DNA from: a bacterium
GTDB taxonomy: Bacteria > Armatimonadota > Zipacnadia > Zipacnadales > Zipacnadaceae
Direction: 5' to 3'
DNA length: 64,000 nt
NCBI GenBank assembly: GCA_030615605.1
Contig: JAUWYY010000006.1
Location: 11,847 to 75,846 of the forward strand
Below, piece after piece: positions 4,020 to 63,470 of this stretch. The notes under the pieces were generated by a model that made no database searches, was not told where the DNA came from, and saw only the letters and a list, made by a program, of their open reading frames with translations. Made by a program: the position numbers and the translations under genes. The number at the start of each line of letters is the position of its first letter. Within the stretch, counting starts at the first letter, position 1.

Positions 4020-4050
4020 GACGGGTGGGACGCCTGTCGTAGCGAAGCAA

Positions 4051-15078: not shown

Positions 15079-15238
15079 CGGTAATTAGGCAGACAGTCGT
15101 GCCCCCTGCCTGCTCTGAGCTTGTGGAGGCCTCTTGCTCAATGTGGTCGGGCTCGTCTCAATACCGTAGGAGCGACATTCTTGTCGCGACACAAATGTTG
15201 CCCTTACAGAGCGCAAATCTCAGCCGTTGCCAGGTGCC

Positions 15239-16261
15239 CTATTCGTAAGATACCGGCAAGAGCAATTTCAGAGCTTCGAGGCAGCCTTCCACATTCGGAT
15301 CGAGTGGGTATCTGTCGCGCGGTTTCAGCAGGTTCAAATAGGCTGACGGTGTCTCTGCAAACGTTGCGTCTTCCTTGCCCTTACGAAAGGCTTTGTAGCA
15401 GTATCCGTTTGTAACAACCACGACCTTACAGTTGGGAAAGTACTCTGCATACTTCTTTACCTGTTTAGGCGCATAATCGAGGCCCTGCGTGAAGCTCTTG
15501 GTCTCGATGATGAGAAGACACCTATCATTCTCCTTCTCCCCAGTGTATGGCTTCGAGAAGCAAGCAATGTCGGCTCGCCCGCGATCCTTTACCGGCAGTT
15601 CGATCTTAATCTGCTGCTCCGCCCATCCAAGCGCCAAGAGCAGGGGAATGACAAGAAATGTGCGGATTTCATGCTCACGAAGGTCTTGCCGCTTGTCGAG
15701 GCCGTAGTAGTACCCAGCCAGCAGACGAATGCGATTAAACGTAGCAGTCAGCTCTTCAGCCGCTCCCGGACGCAGTCCCTGGCGGATCAGAAACTCCAGT
15801 ATCGTTTGATCACCGACGAGTCTTGTCGGTTCGGGTTCCGGATCATACTTCTCTTCTACCGCGACGCTTGAGAGTATACACTCCGCCATATTCCTTAGCT
15901 CCTGCTTATTCACTCTCATGATCGCGCCCAAGGCCAGACCCTTGGCTGGTTGTGCTGAGTGATGGTCGGGAACATGCCAGTCTACGAAGCAGTATGCCGG
16001 TAGATTCCAGCCGTCGAAGTCTTTAAGCCAGTCTTTATCACCCTCACCTCTGTGCCGGCCATTTCGCTCTACTACTTGCCCCACCGCCCAGAACTTCGTC
16101 TTGCCTTGCTTCAAAATGATCCGGTCGTCCACCCCTACCTTCCTCATCGTGCGAATTTGATTCTCCCCGCCCACGAACGCCATGCCGTAGCGAATAAAAT
16201 CCTTGTGGTAGTCGCGTCCAAAGAAGCCAGCGGCGATTTGCCAGTAGTTGTGCTGTGCCAT
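15239..16261 (-). CDS. Candidate modification-dependent (type IV-like) restriction endonuclease: C-terminal PD-(D/E)xK nuclease signature plus N-terminal domain of unknown function
   Basis: 340-aa ORF. The C-terminal region has a D...ExK arrangement (RADIACF ... LLIIETKSF) as in PD-(D/E)xK nucleases. The N-terminal ~120 aa (NYWQIAAG...KFWAVGQVV) has unknown fold. GC content sampled over this gene is about 43-57%, visibly lower than flanking genes. Confidence 0.45.
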   Translation of the reverse strand: MAQHNYWQIAAGFFGRDYHKDFIRYGMAFVGGENQIRTMRKVGVDDRIILKQGKTKFWAVGQVVERNGRHRGEGDKDWLKDFDGWNLPAYCFVDWHVPDHHSAQPAKGLALGAIMRVNKQELRNMAECILSSVAVEEKYDPEPEPTRLVGDQTILEFLIRQGLRPGAAEELTATFNRIRLLAGYYYGLDKRQDLREHEIRTFLVIPLLLALGWAEQQIKIELPVKDRGRADIACFSKPYTGEKENDRCLLIIETKSFTQGLDYAPKQVKKYAEYFPNCKVVVVTNGYCYKAFRKGKEDATFAETPSAYLNLLKPRDRYPLDPNVEGCLEALKLLLPVSYE

Positions 16262-22845: not shown

Positions 22846-25800
22846 GTGCATTTAGAGAAGCTCCAAATGCGGGGGTTTAAGACCTTCGCGGACAAAACCG
22901 AATTGGAGTTCGGGCCAGGTATAACTGCTATTGTCGGGCCTAACGGCGTGGGCAAAAGTAACATTGCTGACGCCGTTTTGTGGGTATTGGGGGAGCAGGG
23001 AACTATACCGTTACGGGTGGAAAGCGCCGAGGGAGTTGTCTTCGCCGGGTCCGAGGATCGCCGGCCGCTGGGCATGGCGGAGGTGAGCCTGACGCTGGAC
23101 AACTCCGACAGCACTCTGGATTCGGAATACTCGGAAATTGAGATCGGCCGCCGTCTGTTTCGCACCGGTAAGAGCGAGTACTTGATCAATCGCGACAAGA
23201 TCCGGCTAAGTGATGTCCGGGATCTGCTGGTGGACAGCGGGTTGGGTACCGACTCCTACGCCCTGGTTGGCCAGGGCGAAATTGATGCCATCCTTAGCGC
23301 TCATCCGGAGGACCGCCGGGAACTGATTGAGGAGGTCGCCGGGGTTCGCAAGTACCGGATTCGCCGCTCGCGGGCCGAGCGCAAACTCGCGGATACCCAG
23401 GATAACCTCATCCGCGTCCGTGACATCATTCACGAACTGCACACCCAACGCCAGCCCCTGGAGCAGCAGGCGGAAGTGGCTCGCTGCTATAAGCAACACG
23501 CAGGCCGGCTGCATGAGTTGCAGCGCGGTTTGCTGGCAGTTGACTACAATCAGCGGCGGCAGCAGCGGGGGGCAATCCTCAATGACATCGCGGTAGTCAA
23601 GGCGGATCTGCAAGCCACGCGCAACGAGCTAAGCACCCTCGAGGCTGAATACGAAAAGAATGCTGGCCAGATTGCCAAGCTGGCCGACCGGCTGGAGGAG
23701 TTGCGCGGCCAGCAGAGGGAGGCGCAGCGCGAACTGGACAGCCAGCGCAATGCCCAGGCGGTGGCTTCGGAAAAGTTGCGGGGTATAGGCGAGCAGCGTC
23801 AGCACCTCGAAGAGCAACAGGAGCAGGCCCAGCAGCGTCGCCAGCAACTGCAAACAGAGATAGGCAAGCTGGAAAAATCGCAAGGTGGCCAGCAGAAGCA
23901 GCTTGCAGCTCAGCAGGGCAAGCTGGCTGATCTGCAAAAGGTCGTTACCGAGCAGGAAGAAGAACATCGCGCGATTCTCACCCGCAAAGAGCAGGTGCAG
24001 CAGCAGCGCAGTGATCTGTCCGGCCAGTTGGCCGAGGTGGAAAACGAAGTGGCTGCTCTGCAGGGATTACAGAGCGATCTGGACGAGCGCATCCAGCGTC
24101 TGGCTGACCAACAACAGCAGTTTGAGCGCCAGCGCAGCGAACTTCAGGATAGCATTGAACAGTTGCGCGGTCAGCAAGCGACCCGGGAAGAGCAGAAAGA
24201 GGAGCTTGGGGGGCAGCTACGAGAGGCGCGCCAGCAGCGTGCTGCGCTGACTGATACTTTGCGGGAGCACCGGCGCAAGCGGGATCGCCTGGGGGAGGCG
24301 GTGGCGGCCGACGAATCACGCCAGACGCTCCTGCAGGAGTTGCAGCGCGACCACGAGGGATATGCTGAGGGACCCCGGGCGTTGCTGGAAGCTGCTCGCA
24401 ACGGCGAGATAAGTGGTGTGGAGGGGCTGGTGGCGGATTTCTTGGATGTGCCGCGTCGTCTGGAGGTGGCGGTAGAGGCCGGGTTGGGTGATAAGCTGCA
24501 GTGGGTGTTGGTTTCCTCCGCAGACGATCTTCAGCGCTGCGTGGAGTATCTGCAAGAGAATAGCCTAGGCCGAGCGACGATCATTGCTGTGGATGTGCCG
24601 ATTCCCGGCTTTGCTGCTCAGATGACCACGGGAGTAGGGCGCACAACTCGGGGTGTACACGGCACTCTGGACTCGCTGCTCAAATATCCCCGCAAGTTAG
24701 GCCGCGTGCTGGACTATTTGCTCGGCGATGTATTGGTTGTTGATGATCTGGAGGTGGCGACTCGCTTGCGCCCGATGCTAACCGGCCCGGTGAAGATGGT
24801 GACCTTGAATGGGGAAGTGGTTGGTCCGGCCGGCCAGATATCCGCCGGAAGCCTGGCGGGAGATGTACAGCGCTCGCTTGACCGCAGACGGGAGGTTGCT
24901 GCCCTTGAAGAACACTTGCAGGGAATGCGCTCCTACCTGGCGCAGATGTGGGAGGCGGAAGAAGAGCTGGAACGCCAGAGTCAGCAACTCGGCGAGCGCG
25001 TCCAGGCCCTGGAGGGGCAGCTTGGCGAATTTGACAAGCAGGCGACGGCTGTTGAGGGCGACTTGCGACATGCCGGCGACCGCTTCCGAGCGGCTCAAAC
25101 TGCTCACCAGGAGATAACCGAGGAGATTTCGGCACTGGAGGAGCGTCGCCAGCAGGCTGACAGCAGGTGCAGTGAAGCCGAAGGCCAGCGCTTGGCGCTG
25201 ACCCACCAACTGGAAGGGAATAAGCAGGAGCTGTCGGGCCTGCCCTCCGCGGAGGCTGCCGAGCAGAGCCTGGGGAACCGGCGCGAGCAGTTGACGGCAA
25301 TCCGGGTAGGAGTGGCCGAACTGGAAGAGAAAGTGCGCTCGAGCACCGCTTTGGCCGATCAGCAACAGCAGGAACTGAGCCGGGTGGAGCGAGAGACTGT
25401 TGATTATGACAGGCAGCTTACCCAATTGGATGAAGCTGAGAAGCAGGCCCGTGAGGCTCTCCAGTCTGACGAAAGCGAAGACGCCGATCTTGAGCAGCGT
25501 GTTCAGCAGTTAGGTGAGCGGGCTGAAAGCTCTCAGCGAGACCTCGTGGCGCTGCGCAGGACCACATCAGGGGTTGAAGCTACCCGGCGTACGCTGCTGG
25601 ATTTGCGCGAAGAGCAAGGCGAACAACTGCATCGCCTGGAGCTGCGCCAGGCGCGTCAGGACTCGGAGCTAGAGCATATCGTCGAGGAGCTTGAGGAGGT
25701 TTACGAACTTACCCCCGAGCAGGCTGCCCAACAGCAGCCGGAGGACTTCGACCTGAAAGCGGCGCGTAGTGAGGCGGCGAAGCTGAAGAGGGAAATCCGC

Positions 25801-26487
25801 GAGTTGGGCTATGTGAATGTCAGTGCCATTGAGGAATGTGAGCGGCTGCAGGATCGGGAGGACTACCTCAGCTCGCAACTGGAGGACCTCCGGCAGGCCC
25901 GTGATGATTTGGAATCGGTCATAGCTGAGATTGATGAGACGGCCAAGGAGACTTTCCTGGCCAGCTTCGAGCAGGTGGAGGAGGCTTTTGATGACCTGTT
26001 CAAGTGGTTGTTCGGCGGCGGCAGCACGCGACTGGAGATCACTGACCCGGAGAATCCGCTGGACAGCGGAGTTGAGGTGATAGTCCAGCAGCCGGGGCGG
26101 CGTTTTCAGAATCTGATGGCCCTCTCCGGCGGAGAGAAGGCGATGATCGGCCTCGCGCTACTTTTTGCTATGATCCGGGTTAAGCCCACTCCCTTCTGCT
26201 TCCTGGATGAGATTGATGCGGCCCTCGATGCCGCCAACTCCCGGCGATTTGCCGAGATGCTCCAGGACTTTGCCAAAAACTCACAGTTTGTCATCATCAC
26301 CCACAACCCCGAGACTATGGAAATTGCCGACCGGCTGCACGGCGTGACTATGGAGCAGCCCGGTATATCCAGACTCATATCCGTAGAGCTAAGCGAAGCG
26401 CAGCGGGAAGCCGAACGCTGGGCTGCGACGGAGGCAACGGTGCCGGCAAGCACCGGGACTGACAAGCAATCAGCACCGGCTGGTTGA
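22846..26487 (+). CDS. smc: chromosome segregation protein SMC
   Basis: 1213 aa. N-terminal Walker A (GPNGVGKSN), long coiled coils, hinge (approx aa 520-640), C-terminal signature LSGGEKAMIGLALLFA and Walker B FCFLDEIDAALD. GTG start with GAGGAAG RBS. Confidence 0.9.
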   Translation: MHLEKLQMRGFKTFADKTELEFGPGITAIVGPNGVGKSNIADAVLWVLGEQGTIPLRVESAEGVVFAGSEDRRPLGMAEVSLTLDNSDSTLDSEYSEIEIGRRLFRTGKSEYLINRDKIRLSDVRDLLVDSGLGTDSYALVGQGEIDAILSAHPEDRRELIEEVAGVRKYRIRRSRAERKLADTQDNLIRVRDIIHELHTQRQPLEQQAEVARCYKQHAGRLHELQRGLLAVDYNQRRQQRGAILNDIAVVKADLQATRNELSTLEAEYEKNAGQIAKLADRLEELRGQQREAQRELDSQRNAQAVASEKLRGIGEQRQHLEEQQEQAQQRRQQLQTEIGKLEKSQGGQQKQLAAQQGKLADLQKVVTEQEEEHRAILTRKEQVQQQRSDLSGQLAEVENEVAALQGLQSDLDERIQRLADQQQQFERQRSELQDSIEQLRGQQATREEQKEELGGQLREARQQRAALTDTLREHRRKRDRLGEAVAADESRQTLLQELQRDHEGYAEGPRALLEAARNGEISGVEGLVADFLDVPRRLEVAVEAGLGDKLQWVLVSSADDLQRCVEYLQENSLGRATIIAVDVPIPGFAAQMTTGVGRTTRGVHGTLDSLLKYPRKLGRVLDYLLGDVLVVDDLEVATRLRPMLTGPVKMVTLNGEVVGPAGQISAGSLAGDVQRSLDRRREVAALEEHLQGMRSYLAQMWEAEEELERQSQQLGERVQALEGQLGEFDKQATAVEGDLRHAGDRFRAAQTAHQEITEEISALEERRQQADSRCSEAEGQRLALTHQLEGNKQELSGLPSAEAAEQSLGNRREQLTAIRVGVAELEEKVRSSTALADQQQQELSRVERETVDYDRQLTQLDEAEKQAREALQSDESEDADLEQRVQQLGERAESSQRDLVALRRTTSGVEATRRTLLDLREEQGEQLHRLELRQARQDSELEHIVEELEEVYELTPEQAAQQQPEDFDLKAARSEAAKLKREIRELGYVNVSAIEECERLQDREDYLSSQLEDLRQARDDLESVIAEIDETAKETFLASFEQVEEAFDDLFKWLFGGGSTRLEITDPENPLDSGVEVIVQQPGRRFQNLMALSGGEKAMIGLALLFAMIRVKPTPFCFLDEIDAALDAANSRRFAEMLQDFAKNSQFVIITHNPETMEIADRLHGVTMEQPGISRLISVELSEAQREAERWAATEATVPASTGTDKQSAPAG

Positions 26488-51669: not shown

Positions 51670-53811
51670 GTGGCCCAACGCAGCAACGGTAAATATCTGC
51701 CTCTGGTAGCAGTTGCCATCCTGGCCGCGGTTACTGCTGGTTTTTGGGCCCCGTGCCTGTTCTTCGGTAGAGTTCCCGCCACCGTCCAGCATCAGAGCTG
51801 GATGGAGCCGTGGCGCGGAGCCGACGCGCCAGCACTGCCAGCCCGGCAGTGGGATCCGCTGCTGTGGGATAGTGTAGCGCAGTTCTATCCGTGGCGAGTG
51901 TTGTTGCGGCGAGGATTGTGCAGCGGCGAGCTGCCGCTGTGGTCTCCCTATCAGTACTGCGGATACCCCCTGGTGGGCAACGGGCAATCGGGAATATTCT
52001 ATCCTCCCAATTGGCTGCTGCTCATTTTGCCGGCAGCAAAGTTTCTGGGAGTTAGTCTGGCCCTGCATTTTTTCATCGTCAGCCTGCTGACCTTCTACTT
52101 CTGTCGCCTGCTGAGGCTGTCAGTCATCCCCGCGCTCTTTGCCGCCCTGGCCTTCTCATATGGCGGGTTTATGATAGCGTGGGCGTTGCTGCCGACATTG
52201 GTGGCCAGTGCGATATGGTTGCCGGGCGCGCTTGCTGGCATTGAACTGACTCAGCGCGGGCGACGGTGCAGGGGTATAGTGCTGCTGGCAGCAAGCCTGG
52301 GTCTGACTCTGCTGGCTGGACATATGCAGATTGCAGCCTATGTGTGGATGAGCGCCGGGGTATATGGCCTGGGCCGGATGCTGTACAATCTGTGGCACAA
52401 GCAATCAGCAGTCTGGTGGCCGATAGCTGCCGGTGCCGGACTGGGACTGATGGTGGGGATGGTGCAGATTCTGCCCACGGTTGAGCTGGGAGTGAATTCG
52501 CCCCGCGGCAGCCAGGTTCCCACCCAACAGGGCTGGCAGTTTCAGCAGCACCGCTCCCTGCGGCCTTTCGAGCTTCTCACCTTCGTTTCACCGGATGCGC
52601 TGGGCACACCGGCCAGCCGGTCGTCCGCCGACCAGTACTGGGGCACCAAATTCGGCATTGTCTACAGTGAGCACTGTGGATTTGCCGGCGTGGTGACGCT
52701 GCTTTTGGCCCTTGTAGCGGTCATCTATCGGCGCGACCGGATTAGCTGGGCCTTCGCTGCCGCTGCGGTTGTGGTGCTATCAGTGATTATGGGCGGGCCG
52801 TTGATGCACCTGCTTTACTTCTGGGTGCCCAAGATCGGGCTGATGGGCAGTTTCACGCGGCTGTTGTTCGTCTATATCTTTCTGGTGGCGGTGTTAGCAG
52901 CGGTGGGCCTGGATCATGTGATGGGCAGAATATCGCTCAATTCGCAGCTTCGCGGCGGCGTTTGTTATCTTCTCGGCGTAGCGTTCATTGCGGTGCTGCT
53001 GTTTGAGATTCTACCCTGGGGGCGACGCTTTATACCGATGCAGCCGGCTACTGATTTGTATCGGCCGACAGAGCTGACCCGTCAGATTCAAAAGTGGTGC
53101 GATCCGACTGAAGGGCGGGTGCTCGCGATCACGCCTCGTCGTGCCTGGAGCCTGCTGCATACGCCCAACGCTGTGCTGCCGCCCAATTCTGCTACTGTCT
53201 ATGGTTACTTAAGCCCCCAGGGCTACGATTCGCTGTCAATAGATGACTACTACGAGTTTGCCGCGAAGCTGGAACATGAGCCACCGGCGCCGGTGGAGAA
53301 CGGCAATATGATGTTGCTGGAGAACTACAATTCTCCATTGTTGGCAAGAACAGGGGTGAAATGGGTCGTGGCGATGGCGCCATTGCAGGTTCCTGAGCTA
53401 GCGATGATCTGGCACGGCGAAGGTACCTATCTGTATCGAGTCAAGGGCCCAAATCGGTTCCATGTGTTTGGCAGGGAAGGTAACCCGGTTGAACCTATTG
53501 CTGCGCGTACGGGTCTTAATTATGTGAAGTTGCGGCTGCCGCCCTCCTCCGCTGCCCGTGTGGTAGTAGCTCGCGACACGTGGTATCCGGGTTGGCACTA
53601 CTTTGTGGATGGGCGCCCGGCAGTTGCCCGCCAACATCTGGGAGTCTTCCGCCGACTGGAGCTTGCCGGCGGTGCTCAGTCCGTGCTTATGGTATACTAT
53701 CCGGCCACTGTACTGTGGGGACTGTTTGTGACGCTGGTCACGACTGGGGCGCTGGCAGCGGTGGCGAGCGGGTGTTGGATGACAGCGCGGATGAGTTGTT
53801 CACGGAGCTGA
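51670..53811 (+). CDS. YfhO-family polytopic membrane protein (GT-C-like glycosyltransferase candidate)
   Basis: 713 aa, >10 TM, N-terminal YfhO-like signature (WDSVAQFYPWRVLL...LPLWSPY..GYPL...QSGIFYPPNWL), large C-terminal extracytoplasmic domain. GTG start with GGAGGA RBS. Confidence 0.6.
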   Translation: MAQRSNGKYLPLVAVAILAAVTAGFWAPCLFFGRVPATVQHQSWMEPWRGADAPALPARQWDPLLWDSVAQFYPWRVLLRRGLCSGELPLWSPYQYCGYPLVGNGQSGIFYPPNWLLLILPAAKFLGVSLALHFFIVSLLTFYFCRLLRLSVIPALFAALAFSYGGFMIAWALLPTLVASAIWLPGALAGIELTQRGRRCRGIVLLAASLGLTLLAGHMQIAAYVWMSAGVYGLGRMLYNLWHKQSAVWWPIAAGAGLGLMVGMVQILPTVELGVNSPRGSQVPTQQGWQFQQHRSLRPFELLTFVSPDALGTPASRSSADQYWGTKFGIVYSEHCGFAGVVTLLLALVAVIYRRDRISWAFAAAAVVVLSVIMGGPLMHLLYFWVPKIGLMGSFTRLLFVYIFLVAVLAAVGLDHVMGRISLNSQLRGGVCYLLGVAFIAVLLFEILPWGRRFIPMQPATDLYRPTELTRQIQKWCDPTEGRVLAITPRRAWSLLHTPNAVLPPNSATVYGYLSPQGYDSLSIDDYYEFAAKLEHEPPAPVENGNMMLLENYNSPLLARTGVKWVVAMAPLQVPELAMIWHGEGTYLYRVKGPNRFHVFGREGNPVEPIAARTGLNYVKLRLPPSSAARVVVARDTWYPGWHYFVDGRPAVARQHLGVFRRLELAGGAQSVLMVYYPATVLWGLFVTLVTTGALAAVASGCWMTARMSCSRS

Positions 53812-53818
53812 AGAGCGG

Positions 53819-55561
53819 TTGGACGAGACTATGCAGGCAGAAAAGCCAGGTAAAGTCAGCCGCAATGAGTGGTTGCTGGTACTGGGCATAGCCGCCGGCG
53901 TTATGATTCTGACGGTACTGCCATATGCCAGGGCCGTTCAGATGGCCGGCGCGGGCGAGTATTTTTGCGGTTTTCTGTGGGGGGTGGACGAGGGTAATGT
54001 CTACCTGGCCTGGCTGCGACAGGCCGCCGCAGGCCGGTGGTTGCTGGCAAATCAGTACACCATAGCCCCTCAGAACCCACACTTCTTCAATATCTTTCTA
54101 ATCCTGCTGGGTAGGTTCTCCGCCCTCACTGGCCTGGCGCCGATCGTGGTATTTCACCTGGCTCGCTTCCTGGGTGGGATGTTTCTGTTATGGGCATTTT
54201 ACCTGCTGGCGGCAGAGATAACCGCGAGCCGTAGAATCCGCCTGGCCGCGCTATTGATAGCAGCGCTATCGTCGGGTCTGGGGTGGATTGTCTATCTGCA
54301 GGCTAAAATGTCGGACCTGCCCCTGGGCGCATGGGACGGCCTTCGACCGATGGATGTAGCCTACGGCTGGCAGGCCCAGCCCGAGGCGGTGACCTTTCTG
54401 TCACTGCTGCTCAATCCGCTGTTTGTCACCTCAATGGGGCTGCTGTGTCTGGTATTCCGCTACGGGCTGCGGGCTGCGCGCGCCCTGGGGCTGCGCAATG
54501 CGGTCGTCAGTGGGATATTGCTGTTGATTCTGGGCAATGTTCACACCTATGATGTACTCATTGTCTATTTGGCCTTGTTTGCCTGGTTTATGTTGGTCGC
54601 TGTCCAGGGCGCAATCACATGGCGGATGGCGGCCAGCCGGTATGCGGTGATCGCCCTGTTGGGTCTGCCCGGGCCGCTGTGGGCCTACTATACGATGCAT
54701 CTCGATCCGGCCTACTCACAGAAGGCGGCCACTGTGACCCGATCGGCAACGCCCTGGGATTATGCCATAGGCTACGGCCTTGTTTTTCTGCTGGCGCTGG
54801 TCGGGACAGTTGTGATTATTCGCTTGCGTAGGACAGCCGCTGGTGAGGCGGGGGAAAAGTTCAACAGGGAGCTGCTCTTTCCGATAGTCTGGGCCGTTTT
54901 GGGCTTTGGGCTACTGTACTTGCCAGTGTCGTTTCAGCGCAAGCTCATCGAAGGGCTGCATCTGCCGCTGTGCCTTCTGGCAGCCGTTGCGCTGGTTGAG
55001 CTGCACCGGTGGCTGGCCGGCCGGGTCTCATTTACTCTGGTATTGGTTGTGTTTCTGCTAGTGACTGTGCCATCGAATGTGCTGTTCTTGGCGGATTGTT
55101 TTGATCACTTGGCTGTCAATAACGTGGACCTGCTGCGCTACCTGATGCCTCCGGCCTATCTATCGAAGGCTGAGAAGACAGCGTTGAACTGGCTGGAGGC
55201 TAATGCCCCGGACGGTGCAGTAGTGCTATCTTCTTCGCTGACGGGGAGTCACATTCCCGCACATACTCCGTGTCGGGTGGTGGCTGGGCACTGGGCCGAG
55301 ACGCTCAAATTCGGGGAGATGCTGCAATTGGTCGGCCATTTCTACTGGCCGGGCCGGGAGCCGTCGGTGCGCCGCCAGATCCTGCGCAGAACTGGCGCAG
55401 ATTTCGTCTACTACGGCCCCCAGGAACAGCTTCTTCAGCAGGGCATGGCGGCTGGAGGACAGTTTGCGCTGGAGGCACAGTGGGACCCCAGTGTTGGTCT
55501 GCGCGAGCTTGAAATCGCGTTTGTTGGTGATGGCTTGCGAATATACCGAGTAGACGACTGA
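53819..55561 (+). CDS. second polytopic membrane protein, GT-C/YfhO-like glycosyltransferase candidate
   Basis: 580 aa, about 12 TM, periplasmic C-terminal domain; starts 8 nt after the previous gene (TTG 53819 or ATG 53831). Confidence 0.45.
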   Translation: MDETMQAEKPGKVSRNEWLLVLGIAAGVMILTVLPYARAVQMAGAGEYFCGFLWGVDEGNVYLAWLRQAAAGRWLLANQYTIAPQNPHFFNIFLILLGRFSALTGLAPIVVFHLARFLGGMFLLWAFYLLAAEITASRRIRLAALLIAALSSGLGWIVYLQAKMSDLPLGAWDGLRPMDVAYGWQAQPEAVTFLSLLLNPLFVTSMGLLCLVFRYGLRAARALGLRNAVVSGILLLILGNVHTYDVLIVYLALFAWFMLVAVQGAITWRMAASRYAVIALLGLPGPLWAYYTMHLDPAYSQKAATVTRSATPWDYAIGYGLVFLLALVGTVVIIRLRRTAAGEAGEKFNRELLFPIVWAVLGFGLLYLPVSFQRKLIEGLHLPLCLLAAVALVELHRWLAGRVSFTLVLVVFLLVTVPSNVLFLADCFDHLAVNNVDLLRYLMPPAYLSKAEKTALNWLEANAPDGAVVLSSSLTGSHIPAHTPCRVVAGHWAETLKFGEMLQLVGHFYWPGREPSVRRQILRRTGADFVYYGPQEQLLQQGMAAGGQFALEAQWDPSVGLRELEIAFVGDGLRIYRVDD

Positions 55562-56812: not shown

Positions 56813-57634
56813 TCATTCGTTCTGGTCCCGGCGGCGGGGGACAATGCCACTGACGTCTCTGGCCTTCATCCACTCTTCCTCCACTGAGATTACTACCTCC
56901 GGCGCGCGGAATTCCTCACCCTTCTTTGTAGTAACCCGGACGTTTCCGGTGAGAGTGATAATATCGGTCAGCTCTTCGTAGACGGCCGCCTCCGCCCAGA
57001 CCGTCTTGTCCTCCTGAACGGCCTTTACCGGCCCGCTCAGCGTCATCTTCTTGACGTCGTCATTGTACTCGTACACTATCTTCGGACAGGTGATGGTGGT
57101 CTTTTTGCGGCGGTACTCCTCGAACTTGCTGGGCTTTTCTTCTTCGTCCCCAGAGCTTTCAGCTTCCTCCACCTTTTTTTGCGCCACTACTGTTATGTTT
57201 CCGGTGACGGTGGCGACCTCCGTGTCGAAGTTGGCTGTCGCTATATCTCCGGTGATCGTCGCCTCCGGGTCTACGATGCACAAATGACCGGTGGCCCGGG
57301 CAGTATCATTGACTTCATCATACCAGGCTTCGTCGCAATACATCTTGACATCCTGGTGACTGAAGACGACACTGCCCGATAGATAATACATCTCCTTGTC
57401 TGCCTCGTACTGCAACAGGTCGGCGTGTTCAATCTTGACAATATCGTCGGCCTCAGGCTTTGTTACGGTGTCTTTGCTCTCGGGGGACGGAGTCTGAAGT
57501 TCTGGAGGTGTGGGCGGCGCCGGGGTCTCCTCATTATCTGCGTTCTGGGCGGCCATTGGCAAAGATAGCACCGCCAGCACGCACAGAAACAGCAGCACAG
57601 CGCTGAGTGCAGTAGCCGGTCTCAAGTATCTCAT
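56813..57634 (-). CDS. LptA/OstA-like periplasmic protein
   Basis: Signal peptide, Pro/Glu-rich linker, then repeated beta-jellyroll OstA-like segments (..TGNVRVT.., ..LSGPVKAVQEDKTVWAEAAVYEE..). Confidence 0.55.
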   Translation of the reverse strand: MRYLRPATALSAVLLFLCVLAVLSLPMAAQNADNEETPAPPTPPELQTPSPESKDTVTKPEADDIVKIEHADLLQYEADKEMYYLSGSVVFSHQDVKMYCDEAWYDEVNDTARATGHLCIVDPEATITGDIATANFDTEVATVTGNITVVAQKKVEEAESSGDEEEKPSKFEEYRRKKTTITCPKIVYEYNDDVKKMTLSGPVKAVQEDKTVWAEAAVYEELTDIITLTGNVRVTTKKGEEFRAPEVVISVEEEWMKARDVSGIVPRRRDQNE

Positions 57635-58326
57635 TGTTGGCGCAGCTCCTTGAGCTTTTCTTTGGCTTCTTCGGCGTGGAAGATCATCTGGATCTTCTCC
57701 AGCCGGAAGTTGCCGGTAGCGACATTGTATTCCAGATTCCCGCCCACTACGGTGTTATCCCCCGCGTACATTGTGACCTGTCCGGGACATTTGACCAGAT
57801 CCTGGGCCACAAAATAATCCAGGCCGCTGGTCATAATAATGGCCTGTTTGTTCTTCACCTCCACGGCATCGGGGCATGAAAGCAATTGTTGCTCCTGATT
57901 CCAACTCAGCTTGTCCGTGGTGATGATTGCCGCTCGGTAGGAGACCACCCGTACATTCCCGCTTACCTCAAAGTCACGGTGACCAGTGTGGCCGGTGATC
58001 GTGTCGGCGGTCAGGCGCACCAGCGGCTCTCCGGCCTTGCCGTAGATGATGGCCTCTTCCAGACCCTTGGCTTCAATCATTTGACCGCCCGCGGCGATAT
58101 AAAGTTCCCGAAGCTGGGCCTGCCAGGCCAATTGGCCCTTCTCCATATGCTTGAGCACCGGCCGCTGGACGGTTATTCCGGGTTGCTGCTGGGTCTGCGC
58201 AGGTGCCGATTCTTGAGATGGGCGGGGCCAAGTAAGTGCCACTACCGCTCCCAGCACAGCGCATCCCACAATGATAACTGCGCCGATCAGCTTCCGGTTG
58301 GGTTGGCGCCGAGCTTCCTCATCCAT
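57631..58326 (-). CDS. LptC-like membrane-anchored protein
   Basis: 231 aa; N-terminal TM anchor (LIGAVIIVGCAVLGAVVALTW) followed by a LptC/OstA-type beta-jellyroll region; 4-nt overlap with the LptA-like gene. Confidence 0.45.
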   Translation of the reverse strand: MDEEARRQPNRKLIGAVIIVGCAVLGAVVALTWPRPSQESAPAQTQQQPGITVQRPVLKHMEKGQLAWQAQLRELYIAAGGQMIEAKGLEEAIIYGKAGEPLVRLTADTITGHTGHRDFEVSGNVRVVSYRAAIITTDKLSWNQEQQLLSCPDAVEVKNKQAIIMTSGLDYFVAQDLVKCPGQVTMYAGDNTVVGGNLEYNVATGNFRLEKIQMIFHAEEAKEKLKELRQQ

Positions 58327-58455: not shown

Positions 58456-61400
58456 CTACTCCTCGATCTGGAGGATGTCGTCGCTGTCCAACTCCTGGTC
58501 GCTACCCTCTAGCCAGGTGGCGAACAATACCTGGGCCTCCCGTTTGGTCAGTGCCCGATCGGCCAGGGCATCGCGCAGTTGGCCAAAGTCGCGGGGGATG
58601 AGTGTTTTGCCGGCCAGCACGCGGTTGATGTGGCCGATGACGTCATCAGTAAGCAGCGACAGGATCTGCCGCGGGCTGGGCTGGTCGGAGAGGCCGACGA
58701 TGGCCTGCAGTTTGCTGGCTACCTCGGTTCTGGGTGGCAGCGCCTGTGCGTAGATGTTGAGCTTCTCGCGCAGGCTGGGGCCACTTAGTGCGGAGAAGTA
58801 CTGATCCAGGCCCTCCTGAGTAGCTTCTTGAAGCTGCTGGACCGGTGGCAGTTGCAGTTCCTGCCCGAGCCGCAGGCGGCACTGTGGGCATATCGGCTGC
58901 TGGCCCAAGTCCTCACCCAGGTTGGGATTATGGCAGCAGCGGGCTATCAAATTCTCTATGATCTCGCCAATCTGGGCGGCATCATACTCGACTTGTATAT
59001 CCAGGCCCTGGAGCTGAGACAGAGCGCGGAAGTCCGGACTGGCGCGGAATCGGCGGTAGTGCTCAAAGGCGGGATTGCGGTGGGCCTGGCTGTGCCAGTT
59101 AAGATAATGACGCTTGTATCGGGTCAGAAAGATCTGCACAGCGCGGTGAAAGGCGAGCTGGTTGCGGATTATCTCCTCGCCGCTTTCCACAGCTTCCAGC
59201 AGCTCGTCTCGCCGGTGGGGAAGTTGCCCGGTATCGGGCAACTGCAGCAGCGAGCTGGTGACATACTGCTTAACCTTGATCAACTCCGGACCGAGCCGCT
59301 GGAGGAATTCCTCCAAACCGTCAACACGCCGCAGCAGCTTGCGCAACAGCATACTCTCATCATCATTGTCCAGGTGCGGCTCCAGCCCGGCGACGAATTC
59401 GCTGATGCCCTCGGAGCTGGCCTTGTTGGGATCGATCATTTCGTAGAATTCGGTAGCTGCATCCAGGTCGCGGGCGGCTTTCTCCCACTGCGGGGCTGAC
59501 TGATCCAGTGCCGCAATCAGTTGGTCGAGCTGCTGGCTGATTTGGCTCAAGCGACTCAGTTGCTGCTGTCGGCCAGCGACCAGCTCTTGCCATATCTGGT
59601 GTTGAGTGCGGAGACTGGGGCCAGAGATACCTCTGTCAAGCACCGCCCGGACCACCTTGCTTAGCGCTTGCCAACTGCTCAGCGGCAGCAGAGCGGGTCG
59701 GGCCAGGTAGCGCACGTGGGCGGCAAAGGGTAGTTCAATTTGCTCAAAGCGCAGCGCCCGCTGGTCGGTATCGAGCGCGACCACATATCCCAGTCGCACC
59801 AGCACCGCTGCGGTTAGCTCAAACAGGTGGGGCGGCAGCCCCAGTGGCGACTTGAGCAAGTGCTGGGCCAGGTCGGCACAGGACAGTGGGCGGCCCTGCT
59901 CGTGCTGGGGGGTTTGATCGCGCTGGCGGATGCGCCTCATAATCTCGTCAGCCACTGGACTGTCTGAGACATCAATCCGTAGGTTATCTCCTTCAGCCTC
60001 CACCAATTCAAGCGGGGCAAGGAAGGCTTCGGCCAGCTCGCGGATACTGGAGCCGGGGGGCGCAGTGACTTCTCCGGGCGCGATCAGTCCAGCGATCACG
60101 CGGCTAATCTGGTCTTCACTGGTCAGAACGCGCCGTGGCGCAACGGATGCAAAATCCGGAAACAAGGCGGCGAAACTGGGTGCGCTAACCTGTGCCAGGC
60201 TTGCGAGCCAATCGCCGGCAGTAGCAGGTAGCTGGTCGGCGGGTATAGTATCGCTGCTGAGCGTTGATATCTCTCCATTATAGTAGGCTTCGACGACGAT
60301 CTGGCGCAGTTGGCTCTCCAGCGTCATATACTCCTCGAGCAGGCGTCCGCGCCACGCTCCCTGCAGTTCGACCTCGGGGGGCGGCTGTTGGAGGAGCTGG
60401 TGGCAGGCCGCACATTCTTTGGCAACATCCACCTCCTCAGCAGTCAACGGCCGCGGCAGCCACGCCACCAGTCCACTATGCCAGCGGGCTTTGTCGGCGA
60501 CCTCCTGCAAGTGCGTCCATGCCTGGCGTTGCTCGGCGACTCGCACTAGCTGCCCAATGAAGAGCTGGCAGTCTTCGGGCGTAGCAGGATCGGCCAATTC
60601 CGCCGCGCACGCCCGTAGTTGGGACAGCGTGAGGTTAGAGAGGTTGGCGATCTGGGCGGCCACGCAGCGGAGAGTATTTTCCCAGATGACCTCATAGGGC
60701 TGTTTGCGTGTCAGCTCGGACAGCGGTAAAGCAGGACTGTCAGAGGCGGCTACTATGCGCTGCCACAGGCGCGAGTCGTCACTTGCGAAGGTGCCTTTTA
60801 CAGCGTTCAGCCGCTGGCGCACCAGATTAGTGAGGTTAGTGTGAGCGTCAATCAGGTAGACGGATGATTCGGGTTCCGGTCCGCGGCGAACGTCCACATA
60901 ATTGCTGGAGAGGTGAAGAGCTTCGAGCAGTTGCCGGGCCCGCTCCGCTGGCAAGCGCGCCGCGCCATTCTCGTCCACGCCCAAACATTCGGCAATGGTA
61001 GCTGCCGCCGAGGGTACGTTGCCCAGGCGCAACACTACCATTGCGCGGATTACCTGCAAGGCCACTTGAGGATCTTCGGGCACCAGTTGGTCAATATTGC
61101 GCTGGTAGAAGTCGAGCACTTCGTTGAAATACGGGCTTACCTGCGGATGTGAACCGGTGGCGGTGTGGATGTAATCCACGAGTTCGGCTGGGCCGATGAG
61201 CTCAAAGTCGGCCCGATCCTCGAAAGCCCGCAATCCACCGGCCCGGGCCGGGGCAGCCGCGAATTGCAGCAGGCCGTCGGCGGCTCTCCCGTAGCGTTCG
61301 ATGATAACCTGGATGCATTGATGAGCCAGGGGATGGAGCGGATACGTCTGTTCGAGCTGCTCAGCGCCAAAGCTGGCCTTGCCAAAGGCTGTTTGATACG

Positions 61401-62670
61401 CGTCGGCTATGCGCTTGATAGCGCTTGACAGTTGCTTGGTATCTGTTTGCTGTAACATCCGCTGTCGAGCGACGCGGGTCATCTGCTGGGTGGACAGTTC
61501 AAGACTGTTTTGATACAAGCTACGCAGGCTGCTCACCAGGTACGGCTCAAGCCCGGTGATGTGCTCCCAGCCGTCTTCGATGGCCAGGATAATGTGCAGT
61601 GGCTCTATATTGCTGCGCTGGGATAGAAACTCCAGGAAGCTGCAGTCACTGTGAGCGGCCTTGCTATCCACGCTGGCAAAGAATTCAGACAGATCGTCAA
61701 TGAGCCATATCGCGCCGCCGAGCCGTTGTTCACTGAGGATTTGCAGCACGCGGGAGAGCCGTTCGCTGCGAGATTGACGGAAATCCAGCGGATAGCCGAC
61801 CTGCTGAGCAACTTGCTGAGCGGCAGCTATTGCCTCGGCTGGTTCGCGGCGGCGCAACTGCTGCCAAGTGGTATAGCCACCGACGTGCTGCCGGGCCCGT
61901 TCGTTGAGCTGTTCGCCGTATCTGGGCACGACGTGTTGCTCAATCAGTGCCATTGCATATGACTGCTGGGAGAGTGGTACGGTGATGTCGTACTTGGGGC
62001 GGGCGAGCTCCCGGGCAGTGCAATCGAAGATAATGTCCTCCAGATGCTCCTGATCTGCGCGGTGTTCAGATAGAGGCACCGGGACGATTAGTCTCGGCGG
62101 GGTTTGCTGCAGTGCCTGGTGAATTGCCGGCAGGTGGGGATGACTGTCCCGGAAGGTTTGCCGGGCGGCGGGGTATTCCAGTAGCAGGGCAATCGCTGCC
62201 AGCAGGTGTGACTTGCCACTGCGGGCCGGACCCTGCACGATTATACTTGAACCCTCATCGGCACCGGCGACAATTGACTCAACAATTGTCTGTAGAGCTT
62301 GCCCCGCTTCGTCGTCCTCGGTTGCGACGTAACTGTCCAGCAAGTCGCCAAGCTGGCTTGCCGCTGGCAGGGAAAGCTCCCCTGGCTGCTGGGCCAGCTC
62401 CTCGCGTAAGGAGTCCAGGTTGCCCAGTGATACCGGCGTGGTCTGCTCAGGACAGTGGATTAGCTCTCCAATGGTTGGTAACAAAGATGTCTCACCCGAC
62501 AGGCAGGCTGGTCGGATCTGGTCAAATGCCTCTAAGAAAGTTGTCCGCACCCGCTGAGGATAAGACCATATTCGTGGCGCGATGGGATATCCCTTCTTGC
62601 TTGCTCGAATTTGTGCATAATTTTCTTCCGATTGGTCGGATAAGAGAGTCGGCCCCAACAGTAGTCGCAA
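58456..62670 (-). CDS. large (1404 aa) P-loop NTPase of unknown function (BrxC/COG1483-like or STAND-like candidate)
   Basis: Uninterrupted 4.2-kb ORF with probable TTG start. Walker A VQGPARSGKSHLL (about aa 145-157; nt ~62200-62240) and putative Walker B AIWLIDDLSEF (about aa 320). About 1000 aa of mostly alpha-helical sequence follow, and a Cys/His cluster CCH-x16-CPQC lies near the C-terminus. Confidence 0.65.
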   Translation of the reverse strand: MRLLLGPTLLSDQSEENYAQIRASKKGYPIAPRIWSYPQRVRTTFLEAFDQIRPACLSGETSLLPTIGELIHCPEQTTPVSLGNLDSLREELAQQPGELSLPAASQLGDLLDSYVATEDDEAGQALQTIVESIVAGADEGSSIIVQGPARSGKSHLLAAIALLLEYPAARQTFRDSHPHLPAIHQALQQTPPRLIVPVPLSEHRADQEHLEDIIFDCTARELARPKYDITVPLSQQSYAMALIEQHVVPRYGEQLNERARQHVGGYTTWQQLRRREPAEAIAAAQQVAQQVGYPLDFRQSRSERLSRVLQILSEQRLGGAIWLIDDLSEFFASVDSKAAHSDCSFLEFLSQRSNIEPLHIILAIEDGWEHITGLEPYLVSSLRSLYQNSLELSTQQMTRVARQRMLQQTDTKQLSSAIKRIADAYQTAFGKASFGAEQLEQTYPLHPLAHQCIQVIIERYGRAADGLLQFAAAPARAGGLRAFEDRADFELIGPAELVDYIHTATGSHPQVSPYFNEVLDFYQRNIDQLVPEDPQVALQVIRAMVVLRLGNVPSAAATIAECLGVDENGAARLPAERARQLLEALHLSSNYVDVRRGPEPESSVYLIDAHTNLTNLVRQRLNAVKGTFASDDSRLWQRIVAASDSPALPLSELTRKQPYEVIWENTLRCVAAQIANLSNLTLSQLRACAAELADPATPEDCQLFIGQLVRVAEQRQAWTHLQEVADKARWHSGLVAWLPRPLTAEEVDVAKECAACHQLLQQPPPEVELQGAWRGRLLEEYMTLESQLRQIVVEAYYNGEISTLSSDTIPADQLPATAGDWLASLAQVSAPSFAALFPDFASVAPRRVLTSEDQISRVIAGLIAPGEVTAPPGSSIRELAEAFLAPLELVEAEGDNLRIDVSDSPVADEIMRRIRQRDQTPQHEQGRPLSCADLAQHLLKSPLGLPPHLFELTAAVLVRLGYVVALDTDQRALRFEQIELPFAAHVRYLARPALLPLSSWQALSKVVRAVLDRGISGPSLRTQHQIWQELVAGRQQQLSRLSQISQQLDQLIAALDQSAPQWEKAARDLDAATEFYEMIDPNKASSEGISEFVAGLEPHLDNDDESMLLRKLLRRVDGLEEFLQRLGPELIKVKQYVTSSLLQLPDTGQLPHRRDELLEAVESGEEIIRNQLAFHRAVQIFLTRYKRHYLNWHSQAHRNPAFEHYRRFRASPDFRALSQLQGLDIQVEYDAAQIGEIIENLIARCCHNPNLGEDLGQQPICPQCRLRLGQELQLPPVQQLQEATQEGLDQYFSALSGPSLREKLNIYAQALPPRTEVASKLQAIVGLSDQPSPRQILSLLTDDVIGHINRVLAGKTLIPRDFGQLRDALADRALTKREAQVLFATWLEGSDQELDSDDILQIEE

Positions 62671-62819
62671 ATCGGAGAAGGGATAATGTGCGGTTCGACG
62701 AAATTAGACTAGAGTTCGTTGGGGCGTCGTGTTTGTGGTTGCCGGGAGCCAGTGTACACGTTCAATGTCGCCACAGGCGACGTCAGGGTCCGACGCCGGG
62801 CCCGAGGAGGAAGTTACTG

Positions 62820-63470
62820 ATGAATCGAACGCTAGGTTTTCTGATAATGGCGGTTGCCCTGATCTATCTCCTGGTATCGGTTACTGATTTTCTTCCCAAA
62901 TACACCGCTGTACCTGAGCTGGTTGATAACCAGGAAAGACTGGGGCTGAGTACGACTACCACCAACTTGCGCTTCCATATCAGTATGGAGATTGTGGTGG
63001 ACGTCATAGTCGTAGGATTGATAGGGATTCTGGGCTGGTGGTTGACCACCACGGAAACCCAGCAATACGCCTACTGGACTATCTTCATTGTGGTGCTGAT
63101 CGGTTTGATTGTACTCTGGAGTACGCCCCTGTTACCCTTCAAGGTCGCGCGGATATCACCGCAGGGGGCATTCTACTACGCGCAGGTTGAGGTGGAACTG
63201 GCTGCGGATACCACTGAGCAAGGCTGGGTCATCATTCCGACAAAGCAGAACCAGCGCGTGGCAGTAACCGAGACTTATCAAGACGAGCGATCTATTGGCA
63301 AGAAAGAGATAGTCCTGGAATTCACTGATAATAACACGCTCAACCAGTACCTGGGTACGGCTGGGCCGGTGACCGTGCTAGGACGGATGAAGGGCACGCG
63401 CAATCTGGCTTACGACAACTTTATCTACACGGTACCTGGTTTCCAAGTCCTGAAGGTGCGGGGAGGCTGA
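62820..63470 (+). CDS. hypothetical 3-TM membrane protein with C-terminal soluble domain (216 aa)
   Basis: ATG 62820 with GAGGAGG RBS; TM helices at aa ~6-22, 56-76, 84-104. The ORF-track start at 62112 is an artefactual extension overlapping the opposite-strand NTPase gene. Confidence 0.5.
   Translation: MNRTLGFLIMAVALIYLLVSVTDFLPKYTAVPELVDNQERLGLSTTTTNLRFHISMEIVVDVIVVGLIGILGWWLTTTETQQYAYWTIFIVVLIGLIVLWSTPLLPFKVARISPQGAFYYAQVEVELAADTTEQGWVIIPTKQNQRVAVTETYQDERSIGKKEIVLEFTDNNTLNQYLGTAGPVTVLGRMKGTRNLAYDNFIYTVPGFQVLKVRGG

Follow-up and report, generated by a model that had tools for sequence, protein, structure and literature searches.

A gene on the minus strand at 58456..62484 of a 64,000-nucleotide stretch of Armatimonadota DNA (assembly GCA_030615605.1, contig JAUWYY010000006.1, positions 11,847 to 75,846; the whole stretch is hereafter called the window) encodes a large P-loop protein of 1342 residues, a member of a small branch of the BrxC/PglY (DUF6079) family that departs from the canonical type. 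We propose, with moderate confidence, that this stand-alone protein, in which the residues for hydrolysis are replaced and the P-loop is kept, acts as a static or slow-switching DNA-bound scaffold or sensor; the gene looks like a defence protein that was retained for another, probably DNA-binding role. BrxC is the universal and least understood organiser of bacteriophage exclusion (BREX) immunity, and its known relatives all lie in multi-gene defence loci and evolve fast. In the clade of the window gene, the BrxC architecture has been kept alone through the history of a class under strong purifying selection, and the hydrolysis residues were replaced stepwise, with living intermediates that run from the full E/Q/R/R set through an E-to-D change only to full replacement. 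Because the family was already known, the gene does not represent a new kind of system. What is new within the family is the combination of stand-alone status, class-wide vertical inheritance and stepwise, selected remodelling of the ATPase site, and such a combination is not described in the available portions of the recent BrxC/BREX literature (PMC12839542, PMC13326643).

Residues are numbered throughout according to P0001, a database protein of 1342 residues that is 100% identical to the product of the gene. A Pfam search assigned the protein to PF19557 (DUF6079, BrxC-PglY_N) with 50.3 bits against a cut-off of 23 (E 9.5e-14), the match being confined to profile positions 723-1129 of 1238, in the C-terminal third. 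The PADLOC BrxC/PglY model was matched with E 1.7e-10, phmmer retrieved full-length DUF6079 proteins (E 1e-59 at 93% coverage), and several homologues carry the NCBI name 'DUF6079 family protein'. A sequence search of the PDB with the single protein gave no match; with a profile of 16 family members, the top PDB sequence match was the N-terminal region of Acinetobacter BrxC (9zll, 9zn5), with Walker A and Walker B aligned. AlphaFold2 (AF2) models of the two halves of the protein were confident (pLDDT 91.5 and 89.9), and a Foldseek search with the N-terminal half placed BrxC first (9zll_D, E 2.7e-12, TM 0.47/0.57 over 616 columns; 9zll and 9zdx at about 3e-12 over about 610), followed by Cdc6/ORC (E 1e-5) and DnaA. 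A first-pass annotation, made from the letters of the window, had named BrxC/PglY among several options, and at the family level that guess was right. The C-terminal half had no significant counterpart among solved structures, where only faint winged-helix (Fur/Zur, ZBP1) and coiled-coil pieces appeared. Its predicted order in the AF2 model (alpha+beta domain, winged helix, long helices, small subdomain, returning helices, terminal domain) fits the BrxC architecture laid out by Rakesh & Krishnan (PMC12839542) and Kaiser et al. (PMC13326643).

Other family assignments did not hold. DUF499, the ATPase of 'BREX-related' (BR) systems, scored 14.4 bits with PF04465 against a cut-off of 23, and 9.9 with NF042962 against 1200. 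Among the STAND models, nSTAND_NTPase5 reached 13 bits against a cut-off of 34 and Avs2 gave E 0.039 over 38 residues; by fold, Apaf-1 and CED-4 came up only at E about 5e-3 to 1e-2, far behind BrxC and Cdc6/ORC, which leaves the STAND, NACHT and KAP alternatives of the first-pass annotation unsupported. KAP and SspC readings were rejected on their scores, and the matches to DUF499, SspC, STAND and GajA were all sub-threshold and limited to the P-loop or the lid. DUF499 ATPases and SspC do share with the window protein a homologous N-terminal AAA+ module (weak matches at residues 391-551 of an open reading frame (ORF) of 1404 codons, discussed below), but they have another C-terminal architecture and obligate methyltransferase and helicase partners (PMC12839542). 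An ABC ATPase of the LptB type was rejected as well, there being no ABC_tran match and only P-loop matches, at E of at least 0.035, to ABC ATPases in the PDB.

In order to delimit the branch, residues 143-1342 were searched with phmmer against 1.84 billion representative sequences. Only 354 matched at E <= 1e-3, a small set made up mainly of solitary and PglZ-fused DUF6079 proteins, which may set the branch apart from canonical BrxC. The best 150 of the 354 matches included 115 full-length proteins of two types: solitary proteins of 1210-1460 residues with a 'WH ... C ... CxxC' signature, and proteins with an 'EH ... C ... CxC' signature, many of which are 1650-1850 residues long, the length of DUF6079-PglZ fusions. 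These fusions (for example P0067-P0074, one of them labelled Thermaerobacter sp.) lie in the same branch, share the His...Cys...CxC/CxxC motif and can be aligned with the window protein over its full length at 22-25% identity, but they end in a PglZ domain and keep canonical active-site residues (Walker B DE, R323 and R403). They form a sister group, to which L066:10001-15175 and many of P0127-P0235 also belong. In locus L066 a TPR protein is encoded just upstream and no methyltransferase was found within 10 kb, so the fusions may work outside classical BREX. The nearest relatives are the solitary 'WH...CxxC' proteins (P0059, P0062-P0065, P0097-P0125; loci L048, L049, L063, L065 and L067), which resemble the window protein in architecture, in length and in having no PglZ or PglX nearby. 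They differ from it in retaining E264, Q285, R323 and R403, and because these residues are kept they are presumably active ATPases.

A comparison of 48 clade members with 106 outgroup proteins whose Walker B reads 'DE' defined the remodelling of the ATPase site. In the outgroup some 57 positions reach a conservation of at least 90%; the clade keeps nearly all of these, and the main exceptions lie in the AAA+ module, where the new residues are mostly acidic or neutral and some are in turn conserved. Position 264, the catalytic Glu of Walker B (E269 in BrxC), is Glu in 106/106 outgroup proteins and Asp in 45/48 clade members; position 285 changes from Gln (105/106) to Glu (41/48); position 403, which lies in the lid and is probably sensor 2, changes from Arg (106/106) to Asp (44/48); and position 400 changes from Ser (101/106) to Gly or Ala. 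Several other positions have become variable in the clade: 303 (Gln in 100/106 of the outgroup), which stands at the end of strand 4 and by its position only is possibly sensor 1; 322 (Asp in 103) and 323 (Arg in 106; L22, S9 and A4 among clade members), where R323 aligns with the Arg finger R330 of BrxC; and the outgroup-conserved Val17 in the N-terminal helices. G88 of the P-loop is invariant in the outgroup (106/106) and relaxed in the clade (G33, R12, S3). G85 is kept in 47/48 clade members and G90, K91, S/T92 and D263 in 48/48, and H93 is also retained. The catalytic AAA+ residues of Acinetobacter BrxC are K78, E269, K326/R330 and R430 (PMC13326643); from this set the Walker A Lys is kept, and the Walker B Glu, the Arg finger at 323 and the probable sensor-2 Arg are replaced.

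The motifs concerned, all on the minus strand, are Walker A GPARSGKS (residues 85-92, 62209..62232), Walker B IWLIDD (residues 259-264, 61693..61710), in which D263 is invariant and D264 takes the place of the catalytic Glu, the R-S-L of residues 321-323 (61516..61524), where the outgroup has [K/R]-D-R according to column counts and the profile hidden Markov model (HMM) alignment to 9zll, and D403 (61276..61278), assigned as the probable sensor 2 position from where it lies in the lid and how it is spaced with respect to BrxC R430 (PMC13326643). The first-pass annotation had correctly reported GPARSGKS and WLIDDL, both of which are conserved across the family. It had described the Walker B as of the hhhhDD type; this 'DD' is no harmless variant and turned out to be one of the coordinated catalytic replacements that mark the clade.

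The changes in catalytic residues co-vary along the tree. The most divergent, basal members (L048 and L049) retain E/Q/R/S/R, P0095 and P0226 show E-to-D as their sole change, and L043 and P0094 are intermediate, with D264 and H285 and both Args retained. All of the remaining 44 members have D264, no Arg at 323 and D403, with Glu (41) or Asp (3) at position 285. Because the replacement residues are themselves conserved, the ratio of nonsynonymous to synonymous substitution rates (dN/dS) is lowest in the AAA+ region and the insert and the second winged helix are the top-conserved parts of the protein, we regard the site as a selected, new, more acidic pocket rather than as a product of decay. 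Hydrolysis of ATP by the inter-subunit mechanism of AAA+ proteins has very probably been lost, judging from the sequence and from what E269, K326/R330 and R430 do in BrxC (PMC13326643). The clade thereby offers a natural separation-of-function series for nucleotide binding versus hydrolysis in BrxC.

Around this site, the AF2 models and the Foldseek results (BrxC, then Cdc6/ORC/DnaA) delimited an AAA+ core of the ORC/Cdc6 clade at residues 59-345 (61450..62310, minus strand, as are all domains given here), with a dN/dS of 0.09 and a large, highly conserved insert at residues ~131-240, between Walker A and Walker B. An AAA+ lid and a first winged helix follow at residues 346-548 (60841..61449), placed by AF2 secondary structure and by a Foldseek alignment that spans BrxC 1-551. 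An alpha+beta domain with approximate boundaries (residues 549-760, 60205..60840) was delimited in the AF2 model and agrees with the BrxC domain order given in PMC12839542. The second winged helix (residues 843-932, 59689..59958) was recognised by its three-helix-plus-hairpin pattern in the AF2 model and, with conservation of 0.56-0.67, is the top-conserved stretch of the C-terminal half; the insert (residues 131-240) and residues 851-880 of this winged helix are the most conserved stretches of the whole protein. A long helical or coiled-coil region with an apex subdomain (residues 933-1292, 58609..59688) leads to a small C-terminal domain seen in the AF2 model (residues 1293-1342, 58459..58608), which by analogy would sit where BrxC has its dimerisation domain (BrxC residues 1147-1226; PMC13326643). 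The roughly 1000 helical residues that had been described behind the ATPase motifs are thus in part a long coiled coil and in part lid, two winged helices, an alpha+beta domain and a C-terminal domain.

The coiled-coil region carries a putative metal site, His1131 ... Cys1184 ... Cys1199-x-x-Cys1202 (58879..59094, minus strand), defined by conserved columns. All four residues are present in 48/48 clade members; in the outgroup the His is found in 106/106 proteins and each Cys in 105/106, one sequence ending before the motif. The conserved ligand set therefore consists of one His and three Cys over 70 residues, with C1184 lying 15 and H1131 68 residues upstream of the CxxC. A CCH...CPQC cluster had been put forward as a possible zinc ribbon. 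The cluster does contain three conserved members of this set (C1184, C1199 and C1202; H1131 lies apart from it), but the CCH is not conserved as such: the first Cys of the 'CC' is kept in only 3/48 members, and its His is not conserved. The AF2 model places the motif in loops between coiled-coil helices and shows no beta-hairpin zinc ribbon. A ribbon with two CxxC knuckles on beta-hairpins and four ligands was rejected, given the single conserved CxxC in a helix/loop region. Judging from these columns, the His-Cys3 motif is ancestral to the DUF6079 branch and not peculiar to the window gene, and the site would bind a metal, probably zinc. The motif is hereby defined for one DUF6079 branch, and may correspond, in metal-stabilised form, to the coiled-coil apex subdomain that was recently described in BrxC.

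A locus scan with one genome per GTDB species yielded 55 loci in 55 different metagenome-assembled genomes (MAGs), with a single copy in each. The genomes are labelled Ca. Zipacnadia, candidate division WS1, Armatimonadia or Armatimonadota, or are MAGs without label; Zipacnadia is the GTDB class UBA5377 of Armatimonadota (PMC10290634). Pairwise identity of the ATPase protein correlated with that of the linked genes (r = 0.91 for LptA, 0.99 for LptC and 0.96 for the membrane protein), and its mean identity of 0.50 was close to that of LptA (0.52) and LptC (0.47), the comparison genes being linked neighbours. The dN/dS calculated from the three closest orthologues was 0.13-0.17 overall and 0.09 in the AAA+ region, and GC content was uniform across the window. 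Since identity tracks the linked genes, dN/dS is low and GC is uniform, the gene was vertically inherited under purifying selection. Counted among the genomes that bear the gene, the data indicate a single copy per genome throughout the Zipacnadia/WS1 class of Armatimonadota. The possibility of a decaying pseudogene was discarded (intact ORF, constant length in 48 genomes, dN/dS about 0.15), and so was a recent horizontal acquisition (synteny, rate congruence, uniform GC of the window).

BREX partners were searched for in the window and around the homologues. The 46 other ORFs of the window gave no BREX family (BrxC, PglZ, PglX, BrxL) among the 25 listed of 36 matched PADLOC families, and Pfam scans of the larger window ORFs and of seven annotated neighbourhoods revealed no PglX/BrxX methyltransferase, no phosphoadenosine phosphosulfate reductase and no PglZ. 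An HMM of PglZ built from the fusion proteins was positive in 7 control loci and found no PglZ within 10 kb in the clade loci (55 genomes) or in the window. No BrxB-like gene was recognised at the loci, where no dedicated BrxB search was made. The statement of the first-pass annotation that the usual BREX partners are missing from the window is thus borne out. In the outgroup, PglZ and PglX were also not found near the solitary relatives. Automated defence calls in the window were traced to another gene: the PADLOC matches to 'mad3' (E 1.8e-68), LmuB, AriA, GajA and JetC all came from a housekeeping SMC gene at 22846..26487 (plus strand) and were rejected as defence evidence; automated annotation is likely to make false defence calls from this gene. 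A further caution for annotators is that a DUF6079 or BrxC match alone is no proof of BREX.

One recurrent partner was detected. In 11/55 species loci an ORF of ~295 codons lies directly upstream of the ATPase gene and co-oriented with it, at a gap of 22-345 bp (e.g. L034:8614-9534, L060:9066-9953, L043:579-1634). The Pfam family BrxA (PF08849) was matched by 9/10 members, with a best E of 4.4e-6; for at least one copy, in L034, the 25.8 bits exceed the gathering score, and no other Pfam family recurred among these ORFs. A profile of the proteins found no BrxA among PDB sequences, so that the BrxA assignment is the one made by Pfam. The HMM built from them detected a gene upstream of the outgroup DUF6079 gene in L063 (8459-9322, E 1e-34), a feature which that solitary 'WH...CxxC' relative thus shares with the clade, and gave weaker matches upstream of BrxC-like genes in unrelated metagenome contigs; it gave no match in the window. 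These contigs came from a metagenome scan with an outgroup alignment which, with its generic Walker motifs, collected heterogeneous BrxC-like fragments, and they were used solely as positive control for the PglZ and BrxA HMMs. Because the brxA-like gene lies upstream in clade loci, in L063 and in metagenome contigs, we take the pair to be ancestral, which suggests that the ancestral unit was a two-gene brxA-like + brxC-like module without PglZ or methyltransferase. The lineage of the window would then have lost the brxA-like gene from the locus and kept the brxC-like gene alone.

Gene contexts were analysed in the seven annotated homologue neighbourhoods and by ORF clustering across all loci, 35 species loci having at least 4 kb of upstream flank. 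A homologue of a 216-aa membrane protein, which is the upstream neighbour in the window, lies upstream and divergent at 0.2-3.8 kb in 17/35 loci, often with two Gfo/Idh/MocA genes between; LptC-LptA lies upstream and co-oriented, 1.5-3.3 kb away, in 6/35 (1.3-3.3 kb in all loci with an upstream pair); and 12/35 have neither lpt genes nor the membrane gene nearby. The sole annotated example of upstream lpt genes, L004, has a convergent tRNA-synthetase gene between LptC-LptA and the ATPase gene. Directly downstream (79-341 bp), LptC-LptA was found only in the subclade of the window (seven species loci and the window itself); at the other loci it was not found in the flanks examined. Because the linkage varies across loci, the adjacency to LptC/LptA represents decaying synteny with no operon signature. 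The genes in the seven annotated neighbourhoods are mostly housekeeping, as are those beside the outgroup solitary relatives (SurA-like, TamB with Omp85, RecJ, flagellar genes, ABC transporters), where defence-type genes (a type II restriction-modification pair, Sir2, a region rich in toxin-antitoxin genes) occur occasionally. The first-pass annotation had considered a solitary defence NTPase: solitary it is, and the defence part is weakened, no conserved partners and no association with defence islands having appeared in the neighbourhoods of its homologues.

Compared with BrxC/PglY (PDB 9zll, 9zdx, 9zn5), then, the protein is alike in length class, in being matched best by it in the PDB by both structure and sequence, and in the 'GSGKSH-L' style of its P-loop. 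The AF2 models also predict a domain order that fits that of BrxC: an ORC/Cdc6 AAA+ module whose insert follows strand 2, a winged helix, an alpha+beta domain, another winged helix, a coiled coil with apex subdomain and a C-terminal domain. It differs in having no adjacent PglZ, PglX, BrxB or BrxL, in being vertical and slow-evolving, in the replacement of the catalytic Glu, the Arg finger and the probable sensor-2 Arg, and perhaps in its invariant His-Cys3 motif at the coiled-coil apex. Retention of a nucleotide-binding fold under selection after loss of the hydrolysis motifs has parallels. Non-catalytic ORC subunits have taken this course. So have the BrxB 'iSTAND' scaffolds (PMC12839542). 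Both belong to other families, and iSTAND has Walker A and Walker B eroded, whereas Walker A is intact here.

According to the model that we favour, a nucleotide or a related ligand would be bound via the intact P-loop without canonical AAA+ hydrolysis cycling. By analogy with BrxC 1147-1226, the protein would form dimers, held together by the coiled coil of its C-terminal half, an apex stabilised by metal and the terminal domain. Its contacts with DNA would be made by the conserved insert, both winged helices and the alpha+beta domain. Since the putative DNA-contacting regions are conserved, unlike the fast-evolving ones that PMC12839542 describes for canonical BrxC, the target of this static or slowly switching scaffold or sensor would be conserved as well and is probably a host one. 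Descended from a two-gene brxA-like + brxC-like module, the protein would be neither a motor nor an organiser of a BREX methylation/exclusion complex. It may thus be a candidate case of a defence protein moving into a host role.

Several points weigh against this model. The loss of hydrolysis is deduced from residue replacements, and an Asp at the second position of Walker B supports catalysis in some P-loop NTPases. Sensor 2 (403) and sensor 1 (303) are probable assignments made by position alone, and the equivalence of position 323 with the Arg finger is suggested by an HMM alignment of ~14% identity. 'Solitary' means that no partner was found within 10 kb of the gene, and the class-wide presence is a count of gene-bearing genomes, Zipacnadia genomes lacking the gene not being counted. 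Defence-type genes do adjoin a few relatives, namely GmrSD with HNH in L003, HicB in L004, a restriction-modification pair in L068 and Sir2 in L067. DNA binding is predicted from the modelled fold and, by analogy, from BrxC biochemistry (PMC13326643).

Tentatively, the proposal can be carried one step further. It is possible that a BREX-derived, ORC/Cdc6-like DNA-binding protein was domesticated as a core chromosomal factor of Zipacnadia, with an ATPase site that would now serve as a non-hydrolysing ligand or structural pocket, and that its role is in the host and not in immunity. Nucleoid organisation, control of replication or segregation, and constitutive marking of a conserved DNA feature would be candidate roles. 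If true, this would be a documented exaptation of a defence ATPase to housekeeping.

We consider it unlikely that the protein still functions in anti-phage defence within a BREX-like or novel system, either together with PglZ, PglX or nuclease partners encoded elsewhere in the genome or as a single-gene sensor. Such a function would agree with the family being known from defence only (PMC12839542), with the fusion to PglZ in sister sub-branches and with the occasional defence neighbours listed above, to which a TIR-like gene in L003 can be added. Against it stand the 55 genomes without PglZ within 10 kb while positive controls were detected, the housekeeping-only genes of the window, the single copy per genome, and a synteny and divergence like those of core genes. 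The dN/dS is 0.15, and the best-conserved parts are the putative DNA-binding regions; canonical BrxC, by contrast, has fast-evolving alpha+beta and winged-helix modules (PMC12839542). The residues that BrxC function requires, in Walker B and the Arg fingers (PMC13326643), are gone.

The presence of defence-type genes beside some relatives was recorded as follows. In L003, whose homologue has 48% identity, a GmrSD_N+HNH gene of the type IV restriction kind (14038-15372) lies directly downstream, a rare defence-type neighbourhood within the clade, and a CAP12-PCTIR TIR-like gene (3553-4731) lies 5 kb upstream. A type II restriction-modification pair (N6_N4 methylase and EcoO109I-family endonuclease, L068:4708-6486) is directly downstream of a distant DUF6079 relative, and a Sir2-family gene (L067:9152-9889) is 42 bp upstream of another one.

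We also give little credence to a site that is still alive, in which D264, E285 and D403 would form an alternative catalytic or ligand centre (for another nucleotide, a metal or cis-only hydrolysis) of an active enzyme with altered chemistry. The conservation of the replacements (D264 45/48, E285 41/48, D403 44/48) together with the lowest dN/dS, 0.09, in the AAA+ region points to a selected new configuration rather than decay, and the near-invariant P-loop residues (G85, G90, K91, S/T92) speak in the same sense. However, the mechanism of AAA+ proteins implies that three added acidic side chains and two lost Args near the gamma-phosphate would oppose hydrolysis of a triphosphate, and positions 303, 322 and 323 turned variable instead of being fixed. 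Such a centre would overlap with the ligand-binding scaffold or sensor that we favour.

Finally, the envelope-associated ATPase that had been proposed, which would work with the LptC-like, LptA-like and three-transmembrane-segment (3-TM) proteins, for example by energising or regulating lipopolysaccharide transport, is highly improbable: in its favour, the gene is co-oriented with lptC-lptA in 15/15 species loci that have them within 4 kb, precedes them directly in the window's subclade across a gap that in the window has 129 bp and no terminator-like site, is linked to the membrane gene in 17/35 loci and has outgroup relatives beside TamB + Omp85 (L065) and a SurA-like gene (L063), but the lpt genes directly follow it only in that subclade, the upstream pairs lie 1.3-3.3 kb off (in L004 behind a convergent tRNA-synthetase gene), 12/35 loci have neither neighbour, the membrane gene points the other way, often with two Gfo/Idh/MocA genes intervening, and the protein has no hydrophobic segment, a replication-initiator-type fold with winged helices, of a cytoplasmic DNA-binding kind, and no remaining hydrolysis residues. 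Export of lipopolysaccharide is powered by the ABC ATPase LptB. As to the outgroup loci themselves, L065:1-9402 encodes TamB (2293 aa), an ECF sigma factor and Omp85/BamA beside the solitary DUF6079 gene, and L063:13913-15775 a SurA-like chaperone; outer-membrane-biogenesis neighbours thus recur (L065, L063, lptC/lptA here), in a sample too small to separate chance from association.

The gene itself lies in an ORF that is uninterrupted, as originally described, at 58456..62670 (minus strand); its first TTG gives 1404 residues, the length initially assigned. This length was not upheld. The approximately 60 full-length homologues all have 1303-1347 residues, the identical entry P0001 has 1342, and a Shine-Dalgarno-like GGGTGAG precedes TTG 62484 by 6 nt; we therefore place the true start at TTG 62484, which gives 1342 codons plus stop (58456..62484) and an N-terminus that aligns with the family consensus. 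As a consequence, the divergent intergenic region between the ATPase gene and the membrane gene measures 335 bp (62485..62819) instead of the 150 bp reported before. In one MAG with 85% identity (L046:4551-8547), the longest homologue ORF has only 1151 codons and an unrelated N-terminus, probably owing to a frameshift or an assembly error.

Downstream of the ATPase gene, the 129-bp gap and the identities of the two genes behind it were as first annotated: an LptC-like gene (57631..58326, minus strand; NCBIfam TIGR04409, 49.6 bits against a cut-off of 38) and an LptA/OstA-like gene (56813..57634, minus strand; passing Pfam LptD_N and OstA_2). An Rfam scan of the window gave zero matches, and a promoter and terminator scan around the ATPase gene returned counts not above those of shuffled sequence, which cannot settle co-transcription with lptC.

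On the other side, the 216-aa protein with its three hydrophobic segments, also correctly reported, is encoded on the plus strand at 62820..63470. Its family, unnamed and lineage-restricted, has a beta-rich domain at the C-terminus, and the gene is a neighbour of the ATPase gene by synteny rather than an operon partner. The mechanical ORF list contained a GTG-started ORF of 452 codons in the same frame (62112-63470, plus strand), which reaches back across the intergenic region and overlaps the 5' end of the ATPase gene in antisense. Since the homologues have 216-218 residues, we place the start of the membrane gene at ATG 62820 and not at that of the 452-codon ORF. In several genomes a second small membrane protein of 123-138 residues, absent from the window, follows the 3-TM gene (L002:7113-7484, L006:5638-6054, L007:5935-6339).

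Two further groups of genes were noted. Adjacent ORFs of 713 and 580 codons at 51670-53811 and 53819-55561 (plus strand) match no Pfam family at E <= 1e-5; in the roughly corresponding region of L002, ORFs of 697 and 577 codons without Pfam matches flank a B12-binding radical SAM gene. The gene at 33973-40101 (plus strand) encodes a 2042-aa product, probably a giant surface protein, in which CarboxypepD_reg repeats are combined with a SpaA-like domain and, at the C-terminus, an FlgD Ig-like domain; proteins with CarboxypepD_reg and FlgD_ig domains are also encoded near the homologue in L004.

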